Positions 6,758 through 26,466 of a stretch of 43,797 nucleotides of DNA are shown in pieces; position 1 is the first letter of the stretch; each line of letters begins with the position of its first letter. The notes below the pieces were generated by a model. That model was not told the DNA's origin, searched no databases, and was given only the letters and a program-made list of their open reading frames with translations. Position numbers and translations under genes: made by a program. This DNA comes from Candidatus Bathyarchaeia archaeon (GTDB lineage Archaea; Thermoproteota; Bathyarchaeia; Bathyarchaeales; Bathycorpusculaceae): assembly GCA_049512075.1 (NCBI GenBank), contig JBEKXL010000020.1, forward strand, positions 1 to 43,797, written 5' to 3'.

Positions 6758-7186
6758 TTCTGCCCAACAAAGCGGCAAAATAAAATTCTAATCGGCGGGT
6801 CAAATAACTTAACAGTACCGTCTTCTACTCTTTTTAAGCCAGTTTGACCCGTCTATTCTTGGAGAAAGCGGAAAACAGAAATCAGATTTCCATTTGCGGG
6901 AGATATCTCCGCTGAAGTGTGAGTTCGGCCTAGACGACGACCTCCATTCTGGGTTGCGGCACTCTAGTATTTCCGATATTGAGGCTCGGCTACTCAAAGC
7001 TTTTCTAGCCACAGCGCGCGCGCAAGCTAACAAAACAACAAACATTCTTTCACTTTCTTTTTGGTTTCCAACAAAGATATATCTTTGTCATGTTCGTTTT
7101 ACACGGATAAAACGAAAACGTTATAACTACTGATCGGCGACAAAAATCGTTTTCACAGAAGAAAATCGAGATTTGGAGATTGGACA

Positions 7187-7206
7187 AAATCTCACACCCC
7201 GCGCCA
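7187..7206 (+). repeat. 3' tRNA fragment (T-arm, acceptor strand and CCA), probable attR; possibly tRNA-Ser
   Basis: AAAT-CTCAC-ACCCCGC-G-CCA followed by a T-tract. No 5' tRNA half upstream. Confidence 0.65.
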
Positions 7207-7349
7207 TACTTTTTGTACAGGAAGAGAAAAGAAGATGGAACGCGCATCCTTTGGAAAACCTAATAGACAAGAACAAGCCATTGTGTCTGGGGATATCAAA
7301 TGCCAAAATGCTCACACTCAAAGGTAGAAATCGAAGAGGGGGACAGGTT

Positions 7350-7862: not shown

Positions 7863-7887
7863 CGCAAACGTGGCCTTTCAAGTCCGG

Positions 7888-8748: not shown

Positions 8749-8877
8749 AAACGAAACCTCTCACATTTGAGGTATTTAAAGAGTGGCATGGTTGCATACG
8801 CATCAAGCGCTCTCGTACACATCAACTCATTTAAACACTGACTACTTACAGAACTTCAAGAATCGTCAAGGGGAGAG

Positions 8878-9285
8878 ATGAGAATGAAAGTGTTGTTCGT
8901 GTGCTCCGGGAATGCTCACCGTAGCCCACTTGCCGAAGCTTTGTTGAAAGAATTGAGACCTGAATGGAAGGTAGACTCGGCAGGACTGCGAGTTGCCATT
9001 CCTGTCTCAGAGGGAGTAAGGGTATACCTTGGAAGAGAGAGGGCAGTGCGGTACCTCAAGAAAGTTCCAGAAAGCCTAGATGGCAAGAAGCTAAACGAGT
9101 ATGACCTTATCGTAGCAATGGAACAAAGACACAAGGACGCCGTCCTGATAAAATGTCCAGAGTGCAATAGCAGAGTAGTCGTGTGGAACATTGAAGACCC
9201 CTACTTCTTGCAGGGAGAGGCAGCTAAGAACGTTTATGACCATATCAAAGCGAGAGTTGCGGAATTGGCACAAACCAAAGACTAG
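8878..9285 (+). CDS. Low-molecular-weight protein-tyrosine phosphatase/ArsC family protein
   Basis: VLFVCSGNAHRS (CX5R), DSAG, DLIVAM and IEDPY motifs. Confidence 0.9.
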   Translation: MRMKVLFVCSGNAHRSPLAEALLKELRPEWKVDSAGLRVAIPVSEGVRVYLGRERAVRYLKKVPESLDGKKLNEYDLIVAMEQRHKDAVLIKCPECNSRVVVWNIEDPYFLQGEAAKNVYDHIKARVAELAQTKD

Positions 9286-9482
9286 AGCGGACACTCGAGG
9301 CTTGCCTCAAAGGGCGTCATAGCACACCTTTGGGCAGGCTACAAGTCGCAGACCCAGACACTGTGTGTCCCGAAAAAACCGGTGCAGCGGCACTGGTCAA
9401 CAAGTTTCGTCGATTAGAGAGTCTAAAATCGTTTGAAAATGTTTATATCGATTCAACTTGTATCCACTAAGCCAAGATCACA

Positions 9483-11327: not shown

Positions 11328-12388
11328 TGTCGGGTTCGTACGGAACGTTCTCCACAAAACAAGAAGAAAAAAGAAAAAGAACCATCCCCGACCGGGTACT
11401 GATCAGAAGAATCTACGAATACGCTCAAGCTAACAAACGAAACCTGCAAATTGGCGTCACCGCTACGATAATCGGTGCTTTTACCGGCTTGGCTGCACCC
11501 TACATGCACGCGATAGCCATCGACCAGATAATAACGCCTAAAAACCTTTCAGGTTTCATATGGTGGATCCCCATTTTCGCCGCTATCATCCTAGGCAACT
11601 ACGTGTTTCAGTACATCCAAACCTATCAGATGCGAATAGTCGGAGAAAAAGTGGTTGCAAAAATGAGAGATGACATGATGGAAAAACTGCAGGTCATCTC
11701 CCTCAGATATTTTTCAGAAGGTGAAGCTGGAAGAATTATCTCTCGCCCGACGAACGACGCCAACACCGTCAGAATATTCCTCAGATTGGGACTCACAAGC
11801 ATTCTCGTAGATGTCTCCTCAATACTGGGTGCCTTCGCCATAATGTTCTATCTTGACCTTCGACTGTCACTTCTCGCCATCACAGTTCTACCTGTAGCCA
11901 TAGTGCTGGTCTGGTACCTTGGAAAATACTCAAGAGCCGCATACAGAAGAACTCTAATCACCACTTCAGGATTGACGGCAAGGATGCAAGAAGACCTAGC
12001 AGGCATAAAGGTCACCCAAGCCTACGCGCAGGAGAAAGAAACAGAAAAGAAGTTCCTGAAAAGCCAAGACGAAAACGTCAAGGCAACTATCAGAGCCATC
12101 CTAATAGGCTCCTCATATACGCCGTTCGTAATAGCATTAAGACTGATTGGAACAATGATAATTTTGTTCTACGGGGTCAATGCTTTGTTGGCAGGAACAA
12201 TCTCGTTAGGAATTCTGGTAGCTTTCACAGAGTACCAGTTCTCGTATTTCATGCCACTTGTCGACCTTGTAACCATGTACGACCAGTACCAGTCAGCCAT
12301 GTCTGCAATTGAAAGAATGTTCGACGTGATAGACACAAAAATCGAGGTCGTGGACGCACCGCCTGAAAGGAGCATCACATTACAATGA
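11327..12388 (+). CDS. ABC exporter transmembrane domain (N-terminal part of a split MdlB-like gene)
   Basis: Six-TM ABC membrane domain that stops in the linker before the NBD. Confidence 0.8.
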   Translation: MSGSYGTFSTKQEEKRKRTIPDRVLIRRIYEYAQANKRNLQIGVTATIIGAFTGLAAPYMHAIAIDQIITPKNLSGFIWWIPIFAAIILGNYVFQYIQTYQMRIVGEKVVAKMRDDMMEKLQVISLRYFSEGEAGRIISRPTNDANTVRIFLRLGLTSILVDVSSILGAFAIMFYLDLRLSLLAITVLPVAIVLVWYLGKYSRAAYRRTLITTSGLTARMQEDLAGIKVTQAYAQEKETEKKFLKSQDENVKATIRAILIGSSYTPFVIALRLIGTMIILFYGVNALLAGTISLGILVAFTEYQFSYFMPLVDLVTMYDQYQSAMSAIERMFDVIDTKIEVVDAPPERSITLQ

Positions 12389-13134
12389 TAGATGAAGTTA
12401 AATTTGAAAACGTCAACTTCGGCTACGAACCAGATGTCCCAGTTCTGAAGAACATCAACTTCACCCTGAAACGCAACATGAAACTCGCGATTGTCGGCCA
12501 GACAGGCGCTGGAAAAAGCACGATAATCAACCTTCTCGCCAGATTCTACGATCCAAACGAAGGCAGAATACTCATCAACGGAGACGACATAAGAGACATA
12601 CCGCTTGCCTCCTTGAGAAGCCGCATAAGCATAGTTCTACAGGACTCGTTTCTCTTTTCAGTTTCCATAAAGGAAAACATAAGGTTCGGGAAACTTGAAG
12701 CATCAGACCAAGAAGTCATAGATGCAGCCAAATCTATTGGCGCCCACGACTTCATAATGAAACTCCCCAACGACTACGACTACGCGATACAGGAAGGATC
12801 TTCAAACATATCCATAGGCCAAAGACAGCTCATAAGCTTCGCCAGAACGCTGCTTGCGAACCCCGAAATCCTGGTGCTGGACGAGGCAACATCCTCAGTC
12901 GACGCCTACACCGAACTGGTGATACAGAAAGCTTTGAAGAAACTGATGCACAACAGGATGACGATAATAATCGCCCACAGACTTTCAACCATCAGACTTT
13001 GCGATGAAATCTTAACCATCGACCACGGCGCGATAGTGGAGAGGGGCAGCCACGAACAGCTTATGCACGAGAAAGGACTATACAGCTCATTCTACAGACT
13101 GCAGTTCAGAGAGGAAACGGGAGCCGACGCATAG
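12385..13134 (+). CDS. ABC exporter ATPase domain (C-terminal part of a split MdlB-like gene)
   Basis: GQTGAGKST, ISIGQRQ, LDEATSSVD and IAHRLST motifs. Confidence 0.85.
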   Translation: MIDEVKFENVNFGYEPDVPVLKNINFTLKRNMKLAIVGQTGAGKSTIINLLARFYDPNEGRILINGDDIRDIPLASLRSRISIVLQDSFLFSVSIKENIRFGKLEASDQEVIDAAKSIGAHDFIMKLPNDYDYAIQEGSSNISIGQRQLISFARTLLANPEILVLDEATSSVDAYTELVIQKALKKLMHNRMTIIIAHRLSTIRLCDEILTIDHGAIVERGSHEQLMHEKGLYSSFYRLQFREETGADA

Positions 13135-13172
13135 TAATATTCCAACTCGCCAACGAGGAGATGGCCGCGGAT

Positions 13173-13925
13173 CTAGTGCCCACCGCGTGTCTGGGCGGAA
13201 CTTGCGAGGCAAACTAAGCCGCCCAGTTGCATCAACCGTTTACCCGCTGGAGTATCGGCGTCAACTACTACGGTCTTCACGTTCTTGTTGTTTGAAATCT
13301 GCAGCAGTCGGCTAACCCTGTTTCTTTCTCTGCTATTCTGCAGATACTCATCTGTAAGCATCAAGTATTCAGGCTTGACTTTGCCACTCGTCCATTGACC
13401 GTAGATCAAGTCCTCCACTTCTTCAAGAGAATACGATATCCTTGCACCGTCTTCGTCGTTGAGCCACTTCTCCAGCGTGTCCAAGACGCGATCAGCATCT
13501 GCCGCCGTAGTTTTATTGATTAAGTCACGAAAAGTTTTCGTCTTCACCAGGTCAGCTACTTCGTGAGGTTTGCCCGCAGAGCCGGCAAGCACGCCGAAGG
13601 TTGCCGAGTTCGGTCCCTTCGCTTGAACCAGCCACGCATCATGCTTCCGTACGTGATCAAGAAAAACATGAGCAAAATCGGTCTTTGGCGGAGCTGCAAC
13701 CACGATGCTCTTGACTCCCTCCTTGAGCACAGATCTCAAAGCGTCGACGATTGCTTCATGAAAACTGTACAAGGCCTTCCCATCCGATCTCACTGCGCCA
13801 AGTCTCAGCGTGACGTGGGGCTTGACGACGTTGCTGAAGACCCGCCACAGGACCGCACGATCCTCCTCCAGACCTATCAGAACAGCGACAGGGTATCCTC
13901 GTCTGTAACCACGTTTTCGAGTCAA
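13173..13925 (-). CDS. eRF1/pelota-like protein (domains 2-3-like)
   Basis: VLIGLEEDRAVL, IVVAAP, LMLTDEYL and TPAGKRLMQLGGLVCL resemble the pelota/eRF1 middle and C-terminal domains. Confidence 0.6.
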   Translation of the reverse strand: MTRKRGYRRGYPVAVLIGLEEDRAVLWRVFSNVVKPHVTLRLGAVRSDGKALYSFHEAIVDALRSVLKEGVKSIVVAAPPKTDFAHVFLDHVRKHDAWLVQAKGPNSATFGVLAGSAGKPHEVADLVKTKTFRDLINKTTAADADRVLDTLEKWLNDEDGARISYSLEEVEDLIYGQWTSGKVKPEYLMLTDEYLQNSRERNRVSRLLQISNNKNVKTVVVDADTPAGKRLMQLGGLVCLASSAQTRGGH

Positions 13926-14024
13926 TTATGCGACCTCACACATAGCATTCCTTTCAGAATTCAGACTATGTCCTACAGAGTCAAATGCGCGGATACAGAA
14001 GCCTCTTGAGCAATCGAATAGGGT

Positions 14025-14225
14025 TCAGGGGTTTAAGAGTCGGTACTGATGATTCTCACAGTCAATCATTTGGTTCTCAAACAGTTTCCGCAGAGACTTG
14101 AAAACCTTCTTATCCGTCTCGCCGCAGTTCGCAGCAATTTCCTTGAGTGTCAAACCTTTGCCAGCGGTTTTCAACGTCGAGACCACAGCTTCGTCAACCT
14201 TGTTCAGTTTTGCCACAGCAACCAT
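14025..14225 (-). CDS. Small winged-helix protein
   Basis: GLTLKEIAANCGETDKKVFKSLRKLFE...QYRL. Confidence 0.7.
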   Translation of the reverse strand: MVAVAKLNKVDEAVVSTLKTAGKGLTLKEIAANCGETDKKVFKSLRKLFENQMIDCENHQYRLLNP

Positions 14226-14268
14226 CCCGAAACCGTCTGCCCATTTTCAGACTCTATACCATACCTTT

Positions 14269-14286
14269 TTTCTTATAATACTTTCC
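14269..14286 (+). repeat. attL (core TTTCTTATAA plus arm AATACTTTCC)
   Basis: The core is repeated at 23129-23138. The arm is the reverse complement of 23121-23130. Confidence 0.8.
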
Positions 14287-14337
14287 CGCTGGGACTGAAT
14301 TTCTGCTTCATAAAAACCAAAAAGGAGATGTGAGAAA

Positions 14338-15342
14338 ATGGATAATATGACCATTGAAGCAGAATGGTTATCGCAAATTCTAGGTGAAAACACAAGGAAA
14401 GGCTATGAAAGGTCAATTGCCTATTTCAAGGAATTTATGAAGACGGAATCGCTCGAAGACATCATAAAACTCAGAAAGGAAGAGAGAAACTTTGAGACAC
14501 GGATAATTCAATTCTTCAAGTGGGTGCAGGAGAAGAAAGACGTGACTGAAAACTCGGCGAGAGCATACTGTATAGCAATCCAGAGCCTTTTCACCTATGT
14601 TGGAGCACCGTTGAGATTGAAAAACAAATTGCCAAAGTTGCATATGAAAATTGAAACTTGGAAACCGTCCGTTAAAGAACTACAAAGGCTATACAGCCTA
14701 GGGGACATTTCAATTAAGGCTTGGCTCAGTCTATCACGGGATATTCCAGCACGAATAAGCGATATGTTGCGGATAACACCTGAGCAAATCGAAAGCGGCG
14801 AATTCCTATTGCAAAGCAAGAAAGAGGGAGTAGTCGGCAAGTGCTACATTTCAGAAGAAACGAAGGCATTATTTAGACAATTGCGCACGGCAAAGATTTC
14901 ATTGCCAATCACTCAAGCTGGAATAGATAAAATGATGGCTAGTGCGTGTAAGATTGCTGGGCTAGAGAAACGAATCAACCAGCACCTTTTGAGAAAAATA
15001 TGGATTTCCACGGCAATCAACTTAGGCGTTCCAGAGATAGTCTATAAGATTCTCAGTTTCAAAACCGTGCCTCAAGAATTGCTTACGTATTATCTCGATA
15101 GAAACGAACTGAAAGACTATTGGCAAAAAGTGGTTAGTGCATTACCTCTTGAACACAGCAACGGCAATAACGGAAGAGTCAACAACATTGAAGAAGCTCT
15201 TGACCTTGTGATGTCGGCGTTAAGAAAACTCATCGAAGAGAAAACAATGACAATGAGAATCAACGTGATGACCGACAAACAGATAATAGAGGAATACGTG
15301 AGGGAAAGCAATGATAGACTCAGAATTAAAAAAATTGCTTGA
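14338..15342 (+). CDS. Tyrosine recombinase/integrase
   Basis: SAM-like N-terminus (NTRKGY), PARISD (R), SKK (K), HLLRK (HxxR) and LTYY (Y). Confidence 0.9.
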   Translation: MDNMTIEAEWLSQILGENTRKGYERSIAYFKEFMKTESLEDIIKLRKEERNFETRIIQFFKWVQEKKDVTENSARAYCIAIQSLFTYVGAPLRLKNKLPKLHMKIETWKPSVKELQRLYSLGDISIKAWLSLSRDIPARISDMLRITPEQIESGEFLLQSKKEGVVGKCYISEETKALFRQLRTAKISLPITQAGIDKMMASACKIAGLEKRINQHLLRKIWISTAINLGVPEIVYKILSFKTVPQELLTYYLDRNELKDYWQKVVSALPLEHSNGNNGRVNNIEEALDLVMSALRKLIEEKTMTMRINVMTDKQIIEEYVRESNDRLRIKKIA

Positions 15343-15403
15343 GGACATAAAGAAAGAACTTGAACATATCAGCGCAACCTTAGAAGCCATTATGGTCAAA
15401 TAG
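15311..15403 (+). CDS. 30-aa amphipathic peptide overlapping the integrase 3' end (not in ORF track)
   Basis: MIDSELKKLLEDIKKELEHISATLEAIMVK. GAGGGA RBS, followed by a T-rich terminator. Confidence 0.45.
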   Translation: MIDSELKKLLEDIKKELEHISATLEAIMVK

Positions 15404-15419
15404 CCCATTTTTCCTTTTT

Positions 15420-16112
15420 TTAATCTTCTAATGGTTTTCTGTGCTTTCTAAACTCTTTGTCACAGTCACAACAACGCCAATTCGAGCCATAACTTTTAAT
15501 GTTGTGACCACCGCAATGGGGACAAACTGAACCCGTTATCCGTGCGTCTTCTAGGTCGATTCTGTGCTGTTTGGTTTTGAGATAATCGATAAACCCGTCC
15601 TCTTGTGGGTAGTTGGGTATCTGAGAACTGAGCGGTTCTTTCAGATTTAGATAGATGTTTTTGAGTAAAAGACACTTAGGATTAAGTTCTTCTCCGTTGT
15701 CAACATAGGCTTTTAATGCCTCAATCACAACCAACATTAAAGTTTTATTGCAAAGTTTACTTGTAAAGTTTATATGTAAAGGTTCTTGTAAAGGTTGGCT
15801 CAGTTCTTCATAACTCACATCATTCTCGAAGTAGCTAAACCAATTCGTAGAGGCTATAACATCGTCCTCTATTTTGTTTCTCAGTTCAAAGTACATTCTC
15901 TCGTTGTTGTACCTATCGCGCATTTTAGAAGAGATTCGCGCATTAATGGACTGTGTGAGGAATGCTTTTAACCTGAAAAGCCAATTATCTTCCCCGAATT
16001 GTGCGCTAATACGTTTCTGCATTTCCTCAACTGATAGACCTTGCTTAACCAAGTCTCTAAGGAACTGTTCGTGTTGTTCTACTGTATGGGTTTTCCAATA
16101 TTCATCGCTCAT
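15420..16112 (-). CDS. Hypothetical protein with C-terminal Zn ribbon; candidate replication initiator
   Basis: CPHCGG...WRCCDC, plus internal iteron-like DNA repeats. Confidence 0.7.
   Translation of the reverse strand: MSDEYWKTHTVEQHEQFLRDLVKQGLSVEEMQKRISAQFGEDNWLFRLKAFLTQSINARISSKMRDRYNNERMYFELRNKIEDDVIASTNWFSYFENDVSYEELSQPLQEPLHINFTSKLCNKTLMLVVIEALKAYVDNGEELNPKCLLLKNIYLNLKEPLSSQIPNYPQEDGFIDYLKTKQHRIDLEDARITGSVCPHCGGHNIKSYGSNWRCCDCDKEFRKHRKPLED
15737..15798 (+). repeat. Five imperfect 12-13-bp tandem repeats (TGTAAAG(T/G)TT-like)
   Basis: TTAAAGTTTTAT, TGCAAAGTTTACT, TGTAAAGTTTATA, TGTAAAGGTTCT, TGTAAAGGTTGG. Confidence 0.65.
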
Positions 16113-16553
16113 TTAATCAACCGCTCCTAGTTCTTTCATCGCCCTATCGACACAAGCCTCTAGTTCTTCAAAATACATATCGAAAGCCTCAGTCAAAAAC
16201 GGGATTCCTTCCCAGAAAGTGCCGTCCCTCATTGCGTGACCATCATGAACGAGAGAAGCATATTCGCTTGTTGGCTTTCCCGTCTTAGGATTGATGACAT
16301 CTTCGCTTCCCGCGCTAATACTATTTCCGTAGAAGTCACCCGCGCTTACAATTCCCGAGTTGTCAATTGTAATGCTAGAAGCAAGAGCACCTGTATCTTT
16401 CGGACAAAGTTCAATTGCCGCGTCACGGATTTTTTCCATAACAGCATCAAGTTCACTTGCTAATTGCTCTTCAAAGTCGTCTGAAAAACCCAATATCCAT
16501 TTCAGAAAGTTTTCTTTTTGTTCGCCACCTTCCTCAGTTAAAACAAGTGACAT
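16113..16553 (-). CDS. HK97 gp10-like phage morphogenesis protein
   Basis: CPKDTGALASSI...EYASLVHDGH...PFLTEAF follows the PvDTGxLxxSI/YAxxVexG/PFlxpA pattern. Confidence 0.75.
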   Translation of the reverse strand: MSLVLTEEGGEQKENFLKWILGFSDDFEEQLASELDAVMEKIRDAAIELCPKDTGALASSITIDNSGIVSAGDFYGNSISAGSEDVINPKTGKPTSEYASLVHDGHAMRDGTFWEGIPFLTEAFDMYFEELEACVDRAMKELGAVD

Positions 16554-16726
16554 TTTGATTTCTCCTTTATTTTTTCCTCAGCTTTTTTCTCAAAGAATTC
16601 CCGACACGAAGCACACGTTAAAAGGTGTTCGTTTATCTCTTCTCGGGTTTTGCCAACTTTTTCGGGTGTGAAGTGCTCGAACATTGCCTCAATTTTCCAT
16701 CGGGTTATTTTACATTCGAGATTCAT
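16538..16726 (-). CDS. Small protein with HxxxCxxC (zf-HC2-like) motif
   Basis: INEHLLTCASCREF. ATG at 16726 is coupled to the upstream stop. Confidence 0.6.
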   Translation of the reverse strand: MNLECKITRWKIEAMFEHFTPEKVGKTREEINEHLLTCASCREFFEKKAEEKIKEKSKCHLF

Positions 16727-16818
16727 TTTCTCTTTCCCCTTAGTTTCCAATAAACCTCTAAGATGTCACATCCTAGAGAGAACAGCGTAATAGCCCACAA
16801 AAGAATCATAGCGTCCAT
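16723..16818 (-). CDS. 31-aa single-TM peptide
   Basis: MDAMILLWAITLFSLGCDILEVYWKLRGKRK. TAATG and ATGA overlaps, with an AGGTG RBS. Confidence 0.5.
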   Translation of the reverse strand: MDAMILLWAITLFSLGCDILEVYWKLRGKRK

Positions 16819-16889
16819 TAAGAGCACCTTCGCTTTTCCCAGCGTTTCGGATTAGGAAGCTGAGGGTAACTTGGTTTATATTTAGTCAA
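16818..16889 (-). CDS. 23-aa basic peptide
   Basis: TTG start after AGGTGA, reading MTKYKPSYPQLPNPKRWEKRRCS. Confidence 0.35.
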   Translation of the reverse strand: MTKYKPSYPQLPNPKRWEKRRCS

Positions 16890-17040
16890 AGTTTACTTTC
16901 ACCTTCTCCATTAGCTCGGATTTTAATTTCTTGTAATACTCTCTTTTGACGTGGCGCGCATAAGCACGGTTCTTCGTTCTGAGCCTATCGACATTATACG
17001 CTGAAAGGTCTATCCAAATTGCATTTATTTGCTCTGTCAC
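16882..17040 (-). CDS. 52-aa basic hypothetical protein
   Basis: GTG start after AGGAG, reading MTEQINAIWIDLSAYNVDRLRTKNRAYARHVKREYYKK... Confidence 0.55.
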   Translation of the reverse strand: MTEQINAIWIDLSAYNVDRLRTKNRAYARHVKREYYKKLKSELMEKVKVNFD

Positions 17041-17111
17041 TATGATTCTCTCCTTTTTCGGTTTCTACGGTGAAATTTCCGTTTATGTCTGTTATTCGGT
17101 TCGTAACTCAT
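17040..17111 (-). CDS. 23-aa Arg/Lys-rich peptide
   Basis: MSYEPNNRHKRKFHRRNRKRRES. It exactly fills the gap, with ATGA and TAGTG overlaps. Confidence 0.45.
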   Translation of the reverse strand: MSYEPNNRHKRKFHRRNRKRRES

Positions 17112-17290
17112 TGAAACCACCTGTAGATGGGTTTTTGCTCACGCCGTATTCGTTCACGTTCGACTTGTTTTCGCATAAGCCTAATTGCCGTAGGAACACA
17201 ATCAACGTGTACCTTTTTTTGAGCAATTTCGAACGGTTCTTCCTTCCACGGTTTTATGGTTAAACCGCAAATTGGACATTTATCAGTCAA
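17108..17290 (-). CDS. Small Zn-finger protein (CxxC...HxxC)
   Basis: KCPICG...VHVDC, with a GGTGA RBS. Confidence 0.7.
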   Translation of the reverse strand: MTDKCPICGLTIKPWKEEPFEIAQKKVHVDCVPTAIRLMRKQVERERIRREQKPIYRWFQ

Positions 17291-17873
17291 CTTTCACCAC
17301 ATTTCCTGTTTTCGAGTCAAATGTCACGTCTTTGCCGTTTTTGTCAACCGCTTTAAAACCGAAATTAACGGTTGCGTTTTTTCTCTGAATGGTTATCGTA
17401 ACTCGGTCAACATCTGGAAAACGCGGAAAAGCCAAAAGCAAACCTAGAAAGCCTTTAGTCAATTCTTCAATTGAAGGGTCTGATTTTATAAACCTGATTA
17501 AATCGTCTGTGGTTTTCTCCGTGCTTTCTTCCGCGTCCAATTTAGCCTTAATTTTCTCTACCGCTTCGATTTTAGCGTCCAAAAGTTTTTCTTCTTTCCA
17601 TTCCCGTTGCTGTTCTTCCGTCATGTAAAGCGGTTGTTCTTCCTCTTGAGGCTCAGGTTCTCCTGTGCCTTCTTCCTCAGAATCTTGTTCGCTCTCTTCT
17701 GTCTCTTCCTCTTCTACCTCTTCCTCTTGTGGCTCTGGGTGTCGGGTTTGATTAGCCCAATTTTGAATGTTTTGTTCAATCTGTTTCTTTTTATGATAGG
17801 AATCCCACCCATACTTAGAAACGTAGGCTTGGTCAAGTGCGCTAAGTTGTCGATATTCGTCCGTGTCACTCAT
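17283..17873 (-). CDS. Hypothetical protein with long acidic tract
   Basis: 196 aa with a Glu-rich linker containing EPQEEE twice. Confidence 0.75.
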   Translation of the reverse strand: MSDTDEYRQLSALDQAYVSKYGWDSYHKKKQIEQNIQNWANQTRHPEPQEEEVEEEETEESEQDSEEEGTGEPEPQEEEQPLYMTEEQQREWKEEKLLDAKIEAVEKIKAKLDAEESTEKTTDDLIRFIKSDPSIEELTKGFLGLLLAFPRFPDVDRVTITIQRKNATVNFGFKAVDKNGKDVTFDSKTGNVVKVD

Positions 17874-18070
17874 GGCAATTTCACCTTTGTTTCAATAGGC
17901 ACATTCAACGTTTCAACGGGAATTGAAATTTCGCCCTTCTTTCTTTTGCAACCTTTTCCCGTTCGCTTGTAAACACGTTGATACTCACGATTATATTTTC
18001 GATAAGCCTCTGTCTTTCTATACTCGCGCATTCTCCGTGCGTGTTCTGCTTTATGATGTTCCGATGTCAT
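17870..18070 (-). CDS. Basic phage-like hypothetical protein
   Basis: MTSEHHKAEHARRMREYRKTEAYRKYNREYQR. The start at 18070 is preferred because upstream is a hairpin. Confidence 0.55.
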   Translation of the reverse strand: MTSEHHKAEHARRMREYRKTEAYRKYNREYQRVYKRTGKGCKRKKGEISIPVETLNVPIETKVKLP

Positions 18071-18091
18071 ATTTTCATACTTCCTGTTACT

Positions 18092-18194
18092 GTGAGGGAC
18101 ACGGGGAAAACCCAGAGAGGCGATGTGGTGAGACAAATGGCTTTCCAATTAAGGAGTAAAAACCTCTGGGAAAACACCCCCGCGTCCTTGTCAC
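18092..18194 (-). ncRNA. Long intergenic stem-loop (candidate structured RNA or cis element)
   Basis: Nested helices GUGA/UCAC, GGACGCGGGG/CCCCGUGUCC and CCCAGAG/CUCUGGG. Confidence 0.5.
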
Positions 18195-18195
18195 T

Positions 18196-18414
18196 TTACC
18201 GACCCTCATGCATAGGATAGTTATCCTTGCTTTCGTCTTCTGGGTCGTATTTAGCGTCTTGTTCTGCTTCTTTTCCTTGAATCGGCGTTTGACTTGCATT
18301 ATGTCGAGCCTTATCTGCTTCTGCTTCGCTTATGGTGAAGTCAACGTACTCTAGGATTTTCTCCCTAAGTTTTCGAAGACGCTCAAGATTTTCTTCAACT
18401 GTTGGAATACTCAT
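18196..18414 (-). CDS. Hypothetical protein
   Basis: 72 aa with GAGGTGA RBS. Confidence 0.7.
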   Translation of the reverse strand: MSIPTVEENLERLRKLREKILEYVDFTISEAEADKARHNASQTPIQGKEAEQDAKYDPEDESKDNYPMHEGR

Positions 18415-18432
18415 TTTTTCATTTCACCTCAC

Positions 18433-18864
18433 TCAACAATCGATAGTTCTTTTAGTGAAATCTTCATTCAGGAACAGTACGGTTCCCGAGTTAATCCGTT
18501 CAGCCGCTTCTTTTGCCGTGATAACTTTCTCTTCACCCGTGACCTTAATCGTTAGTCCATCGTACTTCGCAGTTAGAAACCCGTCTATCTCAGAAGTACA
18601 GTTTCCAGCTTCGTTAGGAATGCTCAGAAAAACTCTAAGCATAGGTTCAGGTACGAGAGGTTTTCCCTCTTCGATTTTAAGCAGTCGTCCACTATGACCA
18701 CGCAAAAGCGTTAATTCATAGCCTAAGTAGTCGTCCTCTTCCCAGCACTTTATAACAAGTTCTCTTTCCAAATACACTACGGTTTTCCGATTATGCGTGT
18801 CTGTGTTTTCCCTTGTGAAAACCACGGGAATCTTTAACAATCTACCCTTTTGAAGAATTGTCAT
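18433..18864 (-). CDS. Hypothetical beta-rich protein
   Basis: 143 aa, coupled to the upstream gene (TAATG). Confidence 0.7.
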   Translation of the reverse strand: MTILQKGRLLKIPVVFTRENTDTHNRKTVVYLERELVIKCWEEDDYLGYELTLLRGHSGRLLKIEEGKPLVPEPMLRVFLSIPNEAGNCTSEIDGFLTAKYDGLTIKVTGEEKVITAKEAAERINSGTVLFLNEDFTKRTIDC

Positions 18865-19550
18865 TAACTTTCGCCTTCCTTCTTTTTCATTCTTCTATCA
18901 TACTCGTGACGTATTTTTTCACGAGCCTTTTCGTTGGCACGGTCAAGAGCCTCTCTAATCTCGCTTTTGAAAGGTTTCAGTTGTGACCAATCGCGAATAG
19001 TAACTTCGCCCTGTTCGTTTGAAATGTCACCTTTAGGTTGCTCATACGAAATTTGTTCACGACTTTTCATGGCTTGAATCGCACGTTTCCAATATTCATC
19101 ATAGTACCGCTTTGCTTCTGGGTCGTCTTGGTTGTCATGAAGAAATTTCAAAAGTTCATTCATATTCTGGAAAGGACGTTTCCAAAGTTCAGTTGCGGAT
19201 TGACCCATCTGTTGAGCGTTTAAAGGTGCAACACCCCCGCTTTCGCCTTTCTTAGCCATTTCAAAGCCTTTCAGCTTTTCCAAGGTGTCAATTTCTGGGG
19301 GAGCACCAAGAGCTTTACGTTTGCGTTCGATTTCTTTCTGAGCCGCAAAGAAAAGTTTGTTCTGCAAATCCTCTATGATTTCATCTTTAGATTCGGGTGT
19401 TTTCTCTTCTTTATCCTTTAAAAGTTTAACAAGTTCGTCTCCCGTAGGATTGTCCACGGTTATGTTTAAATCTACTTTTTGCCGTTTGGCATCTAGTTCC
19501 TTTGCTTTTTCAAGAATCTTGCGCTGTTCAGGTGTTGCTGGGTCACTCAT
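18864..19550 (-). CDS. Charged helical protein (scaffold-like)
   Basis: Lys/Glu-rich ORF with predicted coiled segments. Confidence 0.7.
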   Translation of the reverse strand: MSDPATPEQRKILEKAKELDAKRQKVDLNITVDNPTGDELVKLLKDKEEKTPESKDEIIEDLQNKLFFAAQKEIERKRKALGAPPEIDTLEKLKGFEMAKKGESGGVAPLNAQQMGQSATELWKRPFQNMNELLKFLHDNQDDPEAKRYYDEYWKRAIQAMKSREQISYEQPKGDISNEQGEVTIRDWSQLKPFKSEIREALDRANEKAREKIRHEYDRRMKKKEGES

Positions 19551-19968
19551 GTTTCTCACTATCCTTTTTTTCTTGAATTGCTTCGTCTAGTTTCTGGGAA
19601 TATTCCTTAATTTTTTGCTGGACAATTTCTTTCGCTCGTTCAGGTGTGAGTGGTTGCTCTTTCCGTGGAATATCCCTGAACCGAGAGTCATACCCAAAAG
19701 AATCTAACACGATTTTTTGTAACCCGCTCGGCATATCGGACAGGTTGAAAAGTGGTTCTGCATTAATCCGTATCGTGCTGTTTGCTAGGTTTATTTCCCA
19801 ATTTGTGAGGCTTACCTTCTGAGTCTCTTGTAACCCTTCGACAATGAGAGAATAGAGCGCGTCTATGAAATCTCCGACTATTTCGGTGTTATCGTGTCCC
19901 GTTTTGGCACGGATAACGTTAAGTTTTCTTAGCCTTTCCTTCGAAAGTGCTACTGTGCTTTGTTCCAT
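19543..19968 (-). CDS. Putative DNA-binding protein (RHH-like N-terminus), first gene of the leftward operon
   Basis: STVALSKERLRKLNVIRAKTGHDNTEIVGDFIDAL, with a GGTGA RBS. Confidence 0.65.
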   Translation of the reverse strand: MEQSTVALSKERLRKLNVIRAKTGHDNTEIVGDFIDALYSLIVEGLQETQKVSLTNWEINLANSTIRINAEPLFNLSDMPSGLQKIVLDSFGYDSRFRDIPRKEQPLTPERAKEIVQQKIKEYSQKLDEAIQEKKDSEKHE

Positions 19969-20005
19969 CAATATCACCTATCGTTAATATATTAGTTATA
20001 TTCTA

Positions 20006-20015
20006 GGGTATTTAA
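20006..20015 (-). promoter_or_regulatory. TATA box of the leftward operon (TTAAATACCC)
   Basis: The same 10-mer occurs at 20391 and 21110 on the + strand. Confidence 0.65.
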
Positions 20016-20173
20016 GTCTTACTCTGGGTGTTATCAATTAGTGTTAATAGAATCCGCCGTCACCCGCGCCTATCTACGTCATAGACGGACGCTCTATTGT
20101 TCTCTTTGTTCTAGGGTGGAAATGGTAGGGGACTTGTTTTTTGAGGTTGTTTTGCAATTTTGCCGTTGGTTCG

Positions 20174-20227
20174 GGGTTTGTCTTGTTGTTTGAGGGTTTG
20201 TCTTGTTGTTTGAGGGTTTGTCTTGTT
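20174..20227 (+). repeat. 20-bp tandem repeat GGGTTTGTCTTGTTGTTTGA, about 2.7 copies
   Basis: Exact copies at 20174 and 20194, partial copy at 20214. Confidence 0.9.
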
Positions 20228-20264
20228 TTAGATACAAAACTGTCCGTTTGGTACTGCTTTTTAA

Positions 20265-20280
20265 TTAATCAGTTGATTAA
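20265..20280. promoter_or_regulatory. 16-bp palindrome TTAATCAGTTGATTAA, copy 1
   Basis: Four copies, all inside the element. Confidence 0.75.
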
Positions 20281-20390
20281 ACGGGTCGCAATTGGCTAGT
20301 GATGTCTTAACTCGTGCGATACCGTACTGTAGCTTAGGCATGGACAAATTCGCCGAATAGTTCAACTCGTGGGCTATAAATCCGTTAATC

Positions 20391-20402
20391 TTAAATACCC
20401 GT
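20391..20402 (+). promoter_or_regulatory. TATA box TTAAATACCCGT (promoter with no obvious long ORF downstream)
   Basis: Identical 12-mer at 21110-21121. Confidence 0.55.
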
Positions 20403-20795
20403 CTTCCCATAGTTTAAGGTAGAATAGCGAACGGAGCAATATAGAACCATGACATCAATGAACGAACCACGATTCACGGCGCATTCGATGATTAAGCTAG
20501 ATTCCAAGCTGATTCCAGCATGGAACAAGCCGTTCGACACAAATACGGGATACTGACAGTTGAACCAAGCCCACCCACGGCAAGCGACATAGGGCAAAAA
20601 TTTTGCAACTTTTTAATTTTGGGTCGGCGAATTATTTTCGGCACTTTTCAAATGGTTTCTGGCACGGTTTTCCGAGCCAATTCCGACCACATAACCAACC
20701 AATTATCAATTATTGTTAAAAACCATCATGAACCAAAACGTCTTTTTTTCCAGCAACATCCAAAAACAGCGGTCTATAGCAAATAGGTAGGGCAC

Positions 20796-20811
20796 TTATT
20801 CAACTGATTAA
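20796..20811. promoter_or_regulatory. 16-bp palindrome, copy 2 (TTATTCAACTGATTAA, inverted, one mismatch)
   Basis: Direct reading of the sequence. Confidence 0.7.
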
Positions 20812-20916
20812 CCACCGCCGCCGCTACATAAACAGAGAAAATAGAGGACTGTAGGTTATTTGCTCCCCCTACTACCCCCTACCTATACTATTGAATGAAT
20901 GTAAGATGAAATGAGC

Positions 20917-20982
20917 CTAGACACTTTTGACCCTAGACGCATCTATCTAGGACAAACTAATCTAGGATAATTTCATCTAGGA
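20917..20982 (+). repeat. CTAG/ATCTAGGA repeats at ~15-bp period
   Basis: CTAG at 20917, 20933, 20947, 20962 and 20977. ATCTAGGA at 20945, 20960 and 20975. Confidence 0.7.
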
Positions 20983-21109
20983 TTGATTGTTTGTGAATGA
21001 AAAGGGGGGATAGGTTAGAGGGAAGGGATTGGCTTCTGGGATAGGAGCGTCCGCACCTAAAATGTCACAGGTTCAACTTAACAGTTTCCGTACAAGGCTA
21101 CCGTAAGAT

Positions 21110-21121
21110 TTAAATACCCGT
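21110..21121 (+). promoter_or_regulatory. TATA box of the rightward genes (TTAAATACCCGT)
   Basis: Lies just upstream of the Zn-ribbon ORF. Confidence 0.65.
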
Positions 21122-21148
21122 TTGCCTATTTACCTAATGGTGATAACT

Positions 21149-21289
21149 GTGAGCGAAACTCCAAATGAAATAAAGAAATGTCCTAGATGCGGCAACACGC
21201 ACATTCAACGATATGGACTCGTGCCAACTGTTAATCATGGTAAACGGCAACGATACCTTTGTTCTGAATGCGGACACAGCTTCTACTAG
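21149..21289 (+). CDS. InsA-like Zn-ribbon micro-protein, 46 aa (not in ORF track)
   Basis: KKCPRCGNTHIQRYG...GKRQRYLCSECGHSF. GGTGA RBS; an in-frame ATG is also present at 21137. Confidence 0.75.
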   Translation: MSETPNEIKKCPRCGNTHIQRYGLVPTVNHGKRQRYLCSECGHSFY

Positions 21290-21300
21290 AGGCGATTTCT

Positions 21301-21879
21301 ATGACTATGACTATCGGCGAAAACTCTGCTTCAATTTCAATGAAGTTGGCAATTGCTAATGTTGTCAAACGCTACTCAGGAACCACAAATCAAAGTAACG
21401 GATTCTGGCTTATGGAACAAACTCTCTTGGGAACTTTAACGCGGGAGTTTTGGATTTCAGAGTTCGAGAAGGATTACCCAAACCACGGAAAAGAAATCTA
21501 TGATGAAATGGTTCAATGGTATTCTAAAACTAACATTCAACAGCATAAGGAAAATGCAATCGAAACAGAAGCCAAAAAAATCCGCAAAGAAGCTAGAGAC
21601 AAGATTAGGGAAATTAGAAACCAATTTCTCCAAGCTGAAACCGTCCGAATGAACGATAAGCACGAAGCTAAAGAAGCTAAAGAAGAAGAAATGAACGCTC
21701 CATCCCCTAAGCAACGTCAAGCATTGGAAAAGGCTGAGAGAGACCTAGCTCAAGTTGAGAACTTTGTGCCGAGCGCGGAACAGTTGGCTAACCCTGAATG
21801 GGTGAAGGGACACGGCAAACTCGTTGCGGATAGAAGAGCCGTAGTTGACCAACTGAAAGCACAACAAACAAAAACATAA
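21301..21879 (+). CDS. Hypothetical coiled-coil protein
   Basis: ATG 21301 after GAGGCGA, with a T-tract terminator downstream. Confidence 0.7.
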   Translation: MTMTIGENSASISMKLAIANVVKRYSGTTNQSNGFWLMEQTLLGTLTREFWISEFEKDYPNHGKEIYDEMVQWYSKTNIQQHKENAIETEAKKIRKEARDKIREIRNQFLQAETVRMNDKHEAKEAKEEEMNAPSPKQRQALEKAERDLAQVENFVPSAEQLANPEWVKGHGKLVADRRAVVDQLKAQQTKT

Positions 21880-21917
21880 ACCCTAACTCCCTCTTTTTTT
21901 GCTAGTTTTCCGACTTT

Positions 21918-21933
21918 TTAATCAGTTGATTAA
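21918..21933. promoter_or_regulatory. 16-bp palindrome, copy 3
   Basis: TTAATCAGTTGATTAA between convergent gene ends. Confidence 0.75.
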
Positions 21934-21952
21934 TCCCACATAGAAAATCATG

Positions 21953-22243
21953 TCAGGAAATGTACGCGTTCTTCTGAGCCTTCTGCAACTTCTCCTCATT
22001 CTCTCTAAGGTTTTTCTTTAGTTTCTCAATAGCTAACTTGATGGCGTTTTCAGTAATGTTTTCAGTAATGTTTTCAGGCAATTTCTCCAATAGAGAAAGC
22101 ACATCTTTCATATCTTTCCTTGTGTTGTCGAATAAACTCATAAAAATCTGAGTTGTTGTGTTGCTTGCCCAAATAATGGATTCAATTTTCTTTTCTAATT
22201 CCTCAACCTTGCTTTTCAGATGCTGTACTTCATCTTCACTCAT
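21953..22243 (-). CDS. Small coiled-coil protein
   Basis: GGTGA RBS and an internal 12-bp duplication (ENITENITEN). Confidence 0.7.
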   Translation of the reverse strand: MSEDEVQHLKSKVEELEKKIESIIWASNTTTQIFMSLFDNTRKDMKDVLSLLEKLPENITENITENAIKLAIEKLKKNLRENEEKLQKAQKNAYIS

Positions 22244-22370
22244 TTGTATATCACCAAGTTGTCTATAGATTTGTTTGGCTTTATATGTTTTACGGTAAAA
22301 GGTACGGTTAGAATCATTGGCTTTATTAACAACCGCTATGTTGTCTTATTTTGATTGAAGGTTGTTCGGT

Positions 22371-22541
22371 GTGCCAAAAGAGGGACATAGAAGCGTGACG
22401 CTTCCAGCTTACAGGGTGGAACAGGTAGAGAGGTATTTTGACGACCATAAGGCAGAGCTTCGGAAGAGAGGCATTAAGTCGGCTAGTTCTTTGATTAGTT
22501 TTTGGCTTTCAGAAAAGCTCATTGAATCTTCTGGACGATAA
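22371..22541 (+). CDS. RHH-type DNA-binding protein, 56 aa (not in ORF track)
   Basis: MPKEGHRSVTLPAYRVEQVERYFDDHKAELRKRGIKSASSLISFWLSE, with a GTG start. Confidence 0.7.
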   Translation: MPKEGHRSVTLPAYRVEQVERYFDDHKAELRKRGIKSASSLISFWLSEKLIESSGR

Positions 22542-22552
22542 CTTTCCCTTTT

Positions 22553-22568
22553 TTAATCAACTGATTAA
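22553..22568. promoter_or_regulatory. 16-bp palindrome, copy 4 (inverted)
   Basis: TTAATCAACTGATTAA. Confidence 0.75.
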
Positions 22569-22624
22569 CTCTGAAAAACAAGTTTTAAGAGCAAGTTGAA
22601 CAGTCGTGTATTTTGAGAAAAGAT

Positions 22625-23044
22625 ATGACTACAATACTAGAACCTCTTTATAATCCAATAACCAACAAATATCTAATTGATTTGGGTATTGCAGGTATCA
22701 CAATATTGCTTAACGCAATTAGTGATGACCTTGAGGGGTGGGAATACATCTACAAAGCAAGCCACATAAAAGTTGGAGCAGTAAATTGGACTTTGTTTGC
22801 TGTCTATTTGACTTTCTTTGTTCCTCACTTTTTCGGAGAACAAGATAAATTAACTATCTTTTCCTATATCCTAGTAGTCTTCTGGTTAATGGTTCTTGGT
22901 TGTTGGTTAGTGGTAGGAACAGGGCAAAGTTGGAAAAGCCACGGAACGACATCAAGAGTCGCCTTGATTGGAAGCCCTTTTCTACTTGCTGTTCTCTCGT
23001 TTGCTATCTTCATTTTCTTTGATTACTTCTTTTGGCTTATTTAG
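22625..23044 (+). CDS. Membrane protein (~4 TM), element cargo
   Basis: Four hydrophobic segments; ATG at 22625. Confidence 0.7.
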   Translation: MTTILEPLYNPITNKYLIDLGIAGITILLNAISDDLEGWEYIYKASHIKVGAVNWTLFAVYLTFFVPHFFGEQDKLTIFSYILVVFWLMVLGCWLVVGTGQSWKSHGTTSRVALIGSPFLLAVLSFAIFIFFDYFFWLI

Positions 23045-23120
23045 GTAATAGAAGATTCTTCTATCAGTCCTTTTAAGTCGGTTTGACTAAGGTATTTTGG
23101 GCAAGAAATCAATCTCGGTT

Positions 23121-23138
23121 GGAAAGTATTTCTTATAA
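23121..23138 (+). repeat. attR (arm GGAAAGTATT plus core TTTCTTATAA)
   Basis: Mirror of attL. Confidence 0.8.
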
Positions 23139-23217
23139 ATTTTTATCTCTATGCCGCCGTTACAGATGTCTAGTTTGAAAAAACAAACACGGTTTCGACC
23201 TGAGGCGCTGATGACAG

Positions 23218-23493
23218 ATGCCCTACTATGTCTACATCATCCAATGTGAAGGAAACAGCCTCTACACTGGCTACACAAAAAACCTGAATTCACGCATCAG
23301 GCTTCACAAGAAAGGAAAAGCCGCTCGCTACACGAAAATGCATCCGCCGAAGAAGCTGGTTCACGTCGAAGAATTCAACTCCAGAGCAGAAGCAATGAGA
23401 AGAGAAAAAAGAATCAAGAAGCTCACGCACCTACAAAAACTCAAACTAGCACACTCTAAGACCAGGCGCCATAAGTCCAAGAAGCCTGTATAG
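23218..23493 (+). CDS. GIY-YIG nuclease family protein (UPF0213-like)
   Basis: YYVYII...LYTGYT..L..RI..H..GKAARYT...AMRREKRIK. Confidence 0.9.
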   Translation: MPYYVYIIQCEGNSLYTGYTKNLNSRIRLHKKGKAARYTKMHPPKKLVHVEEFNSRAEAMRREKRIKKLTHLQKLKLAHSKTRRHKSKKPV

Positions 23494-23730
23494 TCAACCT
23501 CTGACTGTCAGAAGAGTTCTGCAAAGGAAGCTCTCAGTCTCTTATAGAGCCGCACTTAAAGAAAAGGTGACTAGGACTCACTGCAAATGTAATTCTCTTT
23601 CTGCAGTTCCAACGGGCACCCTCCGCGCGCGTCTATCTTTCTCGAAGCCACCGCGAGCCTAGTGAATAGTTTTATATCCAAGAGTAACACGAGATTTTTG
23701 TGTAGTAAACTGGCGAGGAGGTGAAGGTAG

Positions 23731-25403: not shown

Positions 25404-25536
25404 AGTTGTTCGCGTTTTGTGTCCTCTGCGGCTCTTTGCATGTCACGTGTAGAGCCAAGCTCACACGGAATAGAATGAACACTTTGCAACGAGTTACAAA
25501 TCATTTATAGTAATTGGTGAGAAATATCAGTCTGCG

Positions 25537-26466
25537 GTGACGAAAACGCTTGTCACAAACAAGGATTTGCTCGTGCCAGCTAGGCGAGAAGCGTATGCCG
25601 TCGCCGCTTTCAACATATACAATCTAGAGAGCCTGCTAGCTGTTTCCGAGGCTGCGGTTGAAGAAAAATCTCCTGCAATAGTTGCTGTCACGCCTAGCGC
25701 CATAAAATATGGCGGTTTGCCGTATCTGACAAGCATTGCCAAAACGGCAGCAGAATCCTTGCCGGTTCCGATGTCGTTGCATTTTGACCATGGAAAAAAC
25801 CTTGACACGATTTCCAAATGCGTCACAGCAGGTTTTACGTCCGTCATGATCGATGGATCCCACTTGAAGTTTGAAGAAAACATCTGGTTAACCAAGCAGG
25901 TGGTTGACCTAGCTCGTTCGAAAAGAGTTTCCGTCGAAGCAGAGCTCGGAAGATTAGCGGGCGTTGGGGAAGAGAAGACTATTGAAGATGAAGACGCTGT
26001 CTTCACCGATCCCGACAACGTTGAAGAGTTCGTCAAGCGGACCAACGTGGACGCTCTTGCAGTCGCCGTTGGCACATCTCATGGGGCCTACAAGTTCAAG
26101 GCTGAGCCAAAACTCGACCTTGATAGATTGAAGTTGATCAGCGAGAAAGCTGCAATACCACTTGTTTTGCACGGTGCTTCAGGCGTTCCTAGGTGGATGA
26201 TCGAAAAAGCAGGCAAGTATGGAGCTCAGCTTGAAGGAGCAAAGGGAATTCCTGACAAGCACATTCAGAAAGCCATTTCTCTTGGAATTGCAAAGATAAA
26301 CATTGACACGGACCTGCGCTTAGCCTTCACCGCAACCATGAGGGAGGTTCTGACAGACTCGCCGAAAGAGGTTGACCCTCGAAAAATCTTGGGCCCTGCA
26401 AAAGACGCTATGAAAGAGGTTGTCAAAGGCAAAATGCGCCTGTTCCGAAGTTCAGGAAAAGCATAA
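25537..26466 (+). CDS. fba: Class II fructose-bisphosphate aldolase
   Basis: AFN, HFDHG, SVMIDGS, EAELG, GTSHGAYK, LVLHGASG and KINIDTD motifs. Confidence 0.95.
   Translation: MTKTLVTNKDLLVPARREAYAVAAFNIYNLESLLAVSEAAVEEKSPAIVAVTPSAIKYGGLPYLTSIAKTAAESLPVPMSLHFDHGKNLDTISKCVTAGFTSVMIDGSHLKFEENIWLTKQVVDLARSKRVSVEAELGRLAGVGEEKTIEDEDAVFTDPDNVEEFVKRTNVDALAVAVGTSHGAYKFKAEPKLDLDRLKLISEKAAIPLVLHGASGVPRWMIEKAGKYGAQLEGAKGIPDKHIQKAISLGIAKINIDTDLRLAFTATMREVLTDSPKEVDPRKILGPAKDAMKEVVKGKMRLFRSSGKA

Follow-up and report, generated by a model that had tools for sequence, protein, structure and literature searches.

A family of small integrase-linked elements in Bathyarchaeia, some of which carry a gene resembling the HK97 gp10 neck gene

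Bacterial phage satellites of the PICI, capsid-forming PICI, P4-like and PICMI types are small elements with an integrase at one end, a divergent regulatory region, no full virion module and a gene that acts in the particle assembly of a helper virus. In archaea, a handful of virus satellites have been proposed so far, all of them plasmid-like circles according to the accessible parts of the reports (10.1101/2025.02.15.638363; 10.64898/2026.08.12.739948). As described there, pSSVx/pSSVi, SRCE (10.1101/2025.02.15.638363) and NMV2S of an Asgard siphovirus (10.64898/2026.08.12.739948) are plasmid-derived elements with Rep or primase-helicase genes that are proposed to use the particles of another virus; pSSVx/pSSVi and SRCE are tied to spindle-shaped viruses, and in those parts none is described as a chromosomal island that carries both an integrase and a neck gene. 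A further category, the cryptic integrated elements of archaea, comprises small, att-bounded and integrase-bearing elements with mostly unknown genes that are suspected to be new viruses or plasmids; in the available sections of the source, several such elements from Thaumarchaeota have a replication protein (PMC6563490). Here we describe an 8,860-bp element in contig JBEKXL010000020.1 (assembly GCA_049512075.1) of a Candidatus Bathyarchaeia archaeon. The window analysed is this entire contig (C20; 43,797 nucleotides), part of a 2.73-Mb genome in 86 contigs that is 99.76% complete, in which no archaeal small-subunit rRNA was found.

With high confidence, the element is integrative and complete, probably retains its mobility and represents a new family. 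Its nearest category is that of the cryptic integrated elements, which is by definition without signature genes in the sections available (PMC6563490), whereas the family described here has a common backbone (the protein families labelled F7, F4, F1 and F6*, and an operator palindrome) and, in some members, a neck gene. No replication protein of the kind reported for Thaumarchaeota was recognised in the element. Its nearest functional analogues are found among bacterial satellites, in the PICI and P4-like types, which resemble it in size and layout but not in genes: it resides in an archaeal host, has no homology to any of their genes, and lacks a recognised primase or replicase, small terminase, capsid-size gene or packaging-redirection gene, the only candidate for a gene acting in helper assembly being the gp10-like gene. 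Likewise, none of its 17 open reading frames (ORFs) matched the plasmid Rep, primase-helicase, or spindle-virus capsid or ATPase families typical of pSSVx, SRCE and NMV2S. A literature search found no description of such elements, and the text of a survey of Bathyarchaeia viruses, supplements aside, mentions neither satellites nor gp10 (PMC10848311).

The borders of the element are defined by empty sites in relatives. The protein encoded on the left flank was used to find these relatives, and the corresponding regions of two congeneric genomes were aligned. In G002 (91-97% identity), window positions 10898-14278 correspond to 19001-15629 of locus L002 and positions 23129-23498 to 15638-15269, such that the flanks abut and overlap by exactly a 10-bp core (L002 15629-15638). 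In G004 (80-85% identity), both flanks meet at L003 15409-15418, where the core is again single. Because the flanks overlap by exactly this core, the insert measures 8,860 bp and spans 14269-23138, in exact agreement with the coordinates given beforehand in a preliminary description of this DNA, whose statement that both att sites are intact is upheld by the single core at both empty sites. The G+C content changes exactly at the borders, from 0.50-0.52 outside to 0.37-0.44 inside, and no tRNA gene lies at the insertion site or elsewhere in the window. These observations show a complete and exactly bounded insertion.

The only repeat at the two ends is the AT-rich 10-bp TTTCTTATAA, which is not among the 20 largest repeat families of the window and occurs 10 times across the element's own genome. 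Among random pairs of 200-bp windows placed 8.86 kb apart in that genome, 712 of 20,000 (3.6%) share a 10-mer by chance. Taken alone, the repeat is therefore weak evidence for att sites; it is accepted as the border because the empty sites in the two congeners validate the core. The terminal arms that adjoin the two core copies match as an inverted repeat at 8 of 8 positions, and at 20 of 28 over a longer stretch (hand count). In a circular form, the attP site would thus probably have an arm-core-arm structure in which a perfect 8-bp inverted repeat flanks the core. A core flanked by an inverted repeat is the typical layout of tyrosine-recombinase core sites; the same shape would equally fit the end of a transposon.

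The insertion was most plausibly made in a site-specific manner by the element's own tyrosine integrase, which is unsplit and, as the preliminary description held, of full length (334 aa, uninterrupted). This protein matches phrog_1 (E 5.6e-9) and reaches 18.9 bits with Pfam Phage_integrase, which is under the cut-off of 27.1. Its residues H216, R219 and Y251 are invariant in all seven aligned integrases of related elements, while the first catalytic Arg and the Lys were identified by eye only. The features of the element are collected in Table 1.

Table 1. Features of the element and its borders, with positions given in the window (aa, amino acids).
Feature	Position	Strand	Description
attL core	14269..14278		10-bp direct repeat TTTCTTATAA; single copy at the empty site of G002 and G004
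Left terminal arm	14279..14286		TACTTTCC; inverted relative to 23121-23128
Tyrosine integrase	14338..15342	+	334 aa; unsplit by integration; start 60 bp from attL
F3	15420..16112	-	230 aa; all-helical; C-terminal C4 zinc ribbon
HK97-gp10-like, Neck1- or tail-completion-like	16113..16553	-	146 aa; PF04883, phrog_5
70-aa protein	16538..16750	-	weak HC2 zinc-finger-like motif; 58% identical homologue in L034
52-aa protein	16882..17040	-	47% identical homologue in L034
60-aa ORF	17108..17290	-	no homologue seen
196-aa acidic protein	17283..17873	-	42% identical homologue in L034
92-aa basic protein	17870..18148	-	38% identical homologue in L034
72-aa ORF	18196..18414	-	no family match
F6*	18433..18864	-	143 aa; core protein, rich in beta structure; immediately follows F1 in every case; no fold match
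F1	18864..19559	-	231 aa; charged; signature gene of the family
144-aa protein (F4 position)	19543..19977	-	first gene of the leftward operon
Divergent control region	19978..21121		1.14 kb between divergent operons
TTAAATACCC boxes	20006-20015 (-), 20391-20400 (+), 21110-21119 (+)		3 copies
Iteron-like 20-bp unit	20174-20227		2.7 perfect copies
Putative operator palindromes in control region	20265-20280 and 20796-20811		TTAATCANNTGATTAA
15-bp tandem repeat	20945-20983		2.6 copies
Zinc-ribbon protein	21122..21289	+	55 aa; InsA/IS1595-type ribbon, every match below cut-offs
F7	21268..21879	+	203 aa; same divergent position as homologues in L018 and L016
Putative operator palindrome	21918..21933		TTAATCAGTTGATTAA
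96-aa protein	21953..22243	-	coiled-coil by sequence reading; 53% identical paralogue on own-genome contig C21
59-aa ORF	22362..22541	+	no family match
Putative operator palindrome	22553..22568		TTAATCAACTGATTAA
143-aa hydrophobic protein	22613..23044	+	about 4 membrane helices by eye
Right terminal arm	23121..23128		GGAAAGTA; 8/8 complementary to the left arm
attR core	23129..23138		second copy of TTTCTTATAA

The element belongs to an undescribed family of integrase-linked elements of about 7-10 kb in this archaeal class. Members share a backbone that consists of F7, a divergent control region with the operator palindrome, the genes F4-F1-F6*, a set of variable small genes and then the integrase; where the gp10-like gene and F3 are present, they sit between the variable small genes and the integrase. 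A profile of F1 matched 8 of 401 sampled genomes of the class, from three taxonomic families, and F1 homologues form 46 clusters among 1.84 billion representatives, none of which has a Pfam or PHROG match. At nine F1 loci, a tyrosine integrase is found 1.8-3.5 kb from F1 in six, contig ends cutting the other three, and F3 is present further downstream in three. In relatives, the gene that comes directly after F1 encodes a divergent F6* homologue (86% in hhalign, with an E of 4.7e-6), and the F1-F6* pair, which has a 1-nt overlap, occurs in all family members inspected; F6* homologues form three clusters among 5.8 billion. In L018 and L016, F7 homologues occupy the same divergent position (E 3.8e-5 and 0.011), and the 144-aa protein has a weak match (E 0.0056-0.019) to the gene in the same position (F4) of relatives.

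A DNA search of four congeners revealed two more elements, both in G003 (L033 and L034, at about 6000-16000 in each), which occupy low-G+C islands of about 10 kb. L033 features F1, F6* and an integrase that is 60% identical to that of the window. L034 is colinear with the element and contains homologues of seven genes of the leftward operon at 32-58% identity (the 144-aa gene, F1, the 92-, 196-, 52- and 70-aa ORFs, and gp10), which shows the four small ORFs to be real genes. The integrase of L034 is about 26% identical to the window's, so that the two G003 elements differ in this gene, and in one of the two the F1-F6* module is inverted with respect to the integrase, which together suggest modular shuffling among family members. 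Around six related integrases, a search for att repeats gave only chance-level 9-12-mers, and no definite ends could be fixed for L033. The only match in a metagenome scan was L004, a contig identical to the window, and the genome-contig scans in the homologue search gave no further match.

Within the element, the preliminary description had counted about 20 small unassigned genes; 17 ORFs are found, of which 15 are without assignment. Only the integrase (by PHROG) and the gp10-like protein matched families convincingly, and nothing else in the 17 ORFs scored above a cut-off. Eleven genes form the leftward operon (19977 to 15420), in the order 144, 231 (F1), 143 (F6*), 72, 92, 196, 60, 52, 70, 146 (gp10-like) and 230 aa (F3), and are separated by overlaps of 1-17 nt or gaps of at most 131 nt. 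This spacing, along with the lack of any interrupted frame in the element, confirms an earlier characterization of the operon as tightly coupled and free of pseudogenes. Judged from its sequence, F1 may be a helical, coiled-coil protein. The N-terminus of the 144-aa protein appears ribbon-helix-helix-like by eye and has no family match.

The divergent layout around a control region of about 1.2 kb also agrees with what is seen (1.14 kb). Three copies of TTAAATACCC occur in the window as opposed to 0.05 expected; two of them are just upstream of the first genes of both operons, and the boxes are predicted to be TATA-type promoter elements. The palindrome TTAATCANNTGATTAA is present in four copies in the 43.8-kb window, every one inside the element, with 0.02 expected. 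It is also found in 6 of 11 related loci, and in 5 of these 6 it lies at or beside the F4/F1 control region. A search with Rfam over 13900-23600 gave a single sub-threshold row (E 0.75).

The link to tailed viruses is provided by the gp10-like gene. Its 146-aa product scores 26.5 bits with PF04883, above the gathering cut-off of 21.4 (26.2 bits in the genome search), and matches phrog_5, 'tail completion or Neck1', with an E of 2.9e-12, so that the HK97-gp10-like virion gene noted previously stands. Distant relatives of this protein are found in tailed proviruses of the class, beside terminase and head-closure genes, whereas the element's gene is without head, portal or tail genes and falls into a separate, diversified clade. 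Homologues form 74 clusters at 37-75% identity, two of which are named Bathyarchaeia or Bathyarchaeota by the NCBI, and F3 homologues form 21. In seven pairs of gp10 and F3 clusters the longest contigs have identical sizes (8816, 9199, 4256, 5991, 6950, 1412 and 3574 bases), which indicates that the two genes are probably co-located on the same metagenome contigs, many of them of 6-9.4 kb; the size of 6950 bases recurs for an F6* homologue.

A maximum-likelihood tree of 43 gp10 sequences, which is rooted at the midpoint and has long branches that meet, includes three element-borne, four F3-linked and three provirus-borne copies as the rows with identified context. One clade of 33 rows (100/96) unites the element-borne copies (window, L017 and L034) with the four metagenome copies linked to F3 and with the majority of the remaining close homologues. 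The three copies from proviruses are grouped in a clade of their own (100/99), which a long branch sets apart. Since the element-borne and F3-linked copies share one clade, gp10 may be read as a long-standing, diversified gene of small elements, as opposed to a product of repeated recent capture or decay. A further gp10-like protein, 38% identical, is encoded in L024 (G226:C44, a 6.2-kb contig), where its gene is flanked by one for a Cas4/RecE-like nuclease and another of 364 aa. In the tree this protein is basal to the element clade, and it may belong to a different small element or to a piece of a virus.

In scans of the 17 ORFs with Pfam and PHROGs, no protein was recognized as a capsid, portal, terminase, Rep, primase or helicase or as part of a conjugation system, and the same holds for 108 ORFs (at least 60 aa) from the nine related loci; no known partition gene was found in either set, nor a DDE or Cas1 domain in the 17. 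Matches among the 108 comprise integrases, InsA-type zinc ribbons, one HNH nuclease, winged-helix regulators and one further gp10. As a positive control, the PHROG scan of 59 ORFs around the distant gp10 genes in other genomes of the class yielded a large terminase (1.5e-34), head closure, head-tail connector, tail fibre and virion proteins, and since terminase and neck genes were found, the scan is able to see tailed proviruses in this class. The absence of a recognisable capsid, portal, terminase, primase/helicase or conjugation gene was likewise reported in the preliminary description and withstands this control. However, 15 of the 17 genes are unassigned, and the lack of a recognised capsid therefore leaves room for a novel capsid or Rep. 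Searches of the PDB with the sequences of gp10 and the integrase and with gp10 and F1 profiles gave nothing below an E of 0.19, tblastn of gp10, F1 and F3 against 50,697 phage records gave no match, PADLOC matched none of 10 element proteins, and no convincing CRISPR array emerged when the genome that carries the element was crudely scanned.

Two core proteins were modelled. The F3 model (25 sequences; pLDDT 84.3, pTM 0.72) comprises an all-helical body and a C4 zinc ribbon; Foldseek returned nothing at an E of 1e-3 or less (best 0.38), and the best score of a wide fold search (VIA; Z 6.7 over 48 residues) is at noise level for helical models. The F6* model (13 sequences; pLDDT 84.4, pTM 0.76) features a sheet of long strands and one helix, with best Foldseek E values of 0.16 in the PDB and 0.09 in BFVD and a best VIA Z of 4.2. 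As modelled, neither protein has a known capsid or initiator fold, and a fold check for a self-sufficient capsid or plasmid Rep thus came out negative for the two proteins to which it was applied. The ESM Atlas gave no usable match for F1 or F3, its own models being poor (pLDDT 0.53 and 0.49).

How the element makes its living is less clear than what it is. The most likely single lifestyle, put forward tentatively, is that of a helper-packaged satellite, or assembly parasite, which exploits archaeal viruses with tails, and the chances that the element interacts with tailed-virus assembly in any manner are about even. Under such a lifestyle, the element would be silent under its own repressor-operator circuit and unable to build a particle alone, and infection by a tailed virus would lead to its mobilization in the particles of that virus, with the gp10/Neck1-like protein working at the head-tail joint and F1 and F6* acting on particle assembly. 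We know of no role for a neck protein without an HK97-type head and tail, neither of which the element has, and this, along with the position of the gp10-like gene as a conserved and diversified member of a tightly coupled operon, argues for the satellite. The element is also 100% identical in contigs of four public peat and wetland runs from different studies, which is counted in its favour. A more specific and somewhat doubtful version holds that this is the first family of integrated, integrase-bearing (PICI-like) satellites of head-tailed archaeal viruses, in which the element's own neck protein couples hijacked heads and tails and F1 (scaffold-like) and F6* (a new beta fold) make up a new assembly-redirecting pair.

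Several observations weigh against a satellite. Of the 12 elements that were inspected in genomes, only three (those of the window, L017 and L034) have the gp10-like gene, which is therefore not core. No small terminase, cos or pac site or capsid-size gene was recognised in the element, nor was a replication protein, which bacterial phage satellites usually have, although iteron-like repeats are present. The element's own genome, at its high completeness, contains no other PF04883 match, no PF05065 capsid and no phrog_2 terminase, and hence no helper; of the expectation that a head-tail provirus with a related gp10 would co-occur, what stands is that distant gp10 genes reside in proviruses of the class, while none does so in this genome. 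Scans of IMG/VR with gp10, F6*, F1 and F3 gave no match, which is neutral at best. F3 and F6*, being confidently modelled yet unmatched, could include a novel capsid or initiator. In the deepest run, the depth of contigs across attL (93.1) and attR (87.9) does not differ from that of the flanks, and a check for circular junctions, which the preliminary description had proposed, found neither a circle nor an empty-site joint in the contigs of the four runs, although contigs are blind to rare forms. No RNA dataset containing the element is listed among the sequencing runs.

Unique capsid proteins are frequent in archaeal viruses, and an alternative possibility is that the element is an autonomous small virus of a new kind, which builds its own particle from a capsid of novel fold (e.g., F6*, F1 or the 143-aa membrane protein). 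The conserved and translationally coupled F1-F6* pair, the confident beta-rich model of F6* and the clustering of homologue-bearing metagenome contigs at 6-9.4 kb would fit such a virus, but no packaging ATPase or recognisable structural protein was found, IMG/VR holds no match, and the neck protein would lack the head and tail it is known to serve, which make this unlikely. Somewhat less so is a cryptic, plasmid-like integrative element that excises, replicates from the iteron region by means of host factors, or else of an initiator that went unrecognised (F7, F3 or F1), and then inserts itself again, with the gp10-like gene as exapted or accessory cargo that has no role in virions. The two sets of iteron-like tandem repeats and the conserved operator in the control region are consistent with such a plasmid, as are the limited distribution of gp10 and the absence of the family from IMG/VR and phage records; most integrated archaeal elements of similar size are cryptic according to the available part of the source (PMC6563490). 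Nevertheless, no known Rep, primase, helicase, partition or conjugation gene is found in the 17 and 108 ORFs, the F3 model matches no initiator fold, and a diversified, element-specific gp10 lineage is hard to explain without a virion-related role, so that this too is rather improbable. The same gp10 evidence is shared by an anti-virus island, in which a decoy neck and assembly-interfering proteins would block tailed viruses while the island itself is not packaged. Bacterial satellites and islands often disturb helper assembly (PMC9122126), but the lack of a PADLOC match for 10 of the element's proteins and of any experimental handle leaves this reading quite unlikely.

The remaining two explanations concern the origin of the insertion. 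In a transposon-like insertion, the 10-bp repeat would be a target-site duplication and the 8-bp inverted termini the transposon ends. The adjacency of inverted termini (8/8) to a short direct repeat would suit this, as would two zinc ribbons that resemble those of IS1 and IS1595 transposases, below cut-offs. Yet no DDE or Cas1 domain is encoded, the F3 model is all-helical and without a transposase fold, and the tyrosine integrase lies 60 bp from the end in the normal layout of site-specific integration; a transposon is thus very improbable. An integrase and one virion gene are also what a decayed tailed provirus could retain, and under this explanation the element would be such a remnant. 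This is contradicted by the exactness of the insertion, whose ends are intact and whose site is empty in relatives, the lack of broken frames, the occurrence of a family of similar size and order across several taxonomic families, the absence of its core genes from tailed proviruses and virus collections, and the placement of element-borne gp10 in a clade of its own. The exact empty sites, the conserved family and the core proteins missing from IMG/VR and phage records together leave hardly any credence for decay. Accordingly, where the preliminary description proposed a helper-dependent satellite instead of a decayed provirus, the distinction from a decayed provirus holds for this complete, bounded element with its family of similar size and order, whereas helper dependence does not follow, as neither a helper, a packaging gene nor an excised form was found.

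Some further features were seen in and around the element. A stretch of about 40 bp near attR (23047-23088), which directly follows the last element gene and contains the palindrome AGAAGATTCTTCT, was considered as a shared element end and ruled out, as it is a repeat interspersed in genomes of the genus and found also at places without element genes; copies of 85-90% identity are found in G002:C2, G004:C3, C10, C15 and G003:C3, with several in L037, and the repeat gave loose ends in two runs. Just outside attL, a 66-aa winged-helix gene (14025-14225) has a 56% identical paralogue in the same genome (C42:4354-4539), at the end of a 4.9-kb contig. Beyond attR, window positions 25448-26404, which span most of a class-II fructose-bisphosphate aldolase gene (25537-26466), are absent from G002, where the neighbouring alignments abut (L002 13381/13383), and present in G004. 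A second stretch of low G+C (window 1-7000; 0.38-0.43 against 0.45-0.52 elsewhere) may be another island. Elsewhere in the genome, a second tyrosine integrase (C11:44615-45760), 41% identical to that of L018, is located in a low-G+C stretch at about 40-46 kb without F1, F3 or gp10. The genome also has 17 matches to the TATA-binding protein (TBP) domain, which correspond to eight two-domain TBP genes and one fragment, an unusually large set; this family matched only archaeal controls, and its presence identifies the genome as that of an archaeon.

The family is new whether or not it consists of satellites: it features two confidently folded core proteins without a known fold, and it has no recognisable machinery for replication or transfer. 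If the satellite reading is true, the PICI/P4 lifestyle would also exist in archaea, in the form of a family of integrated islands that bear a neck gene of tailed viruses. Its att sites, operator and marker genes would then offer a handle on virus-virus parasitism in an uncultured lineage that dwells in sediment and peat.

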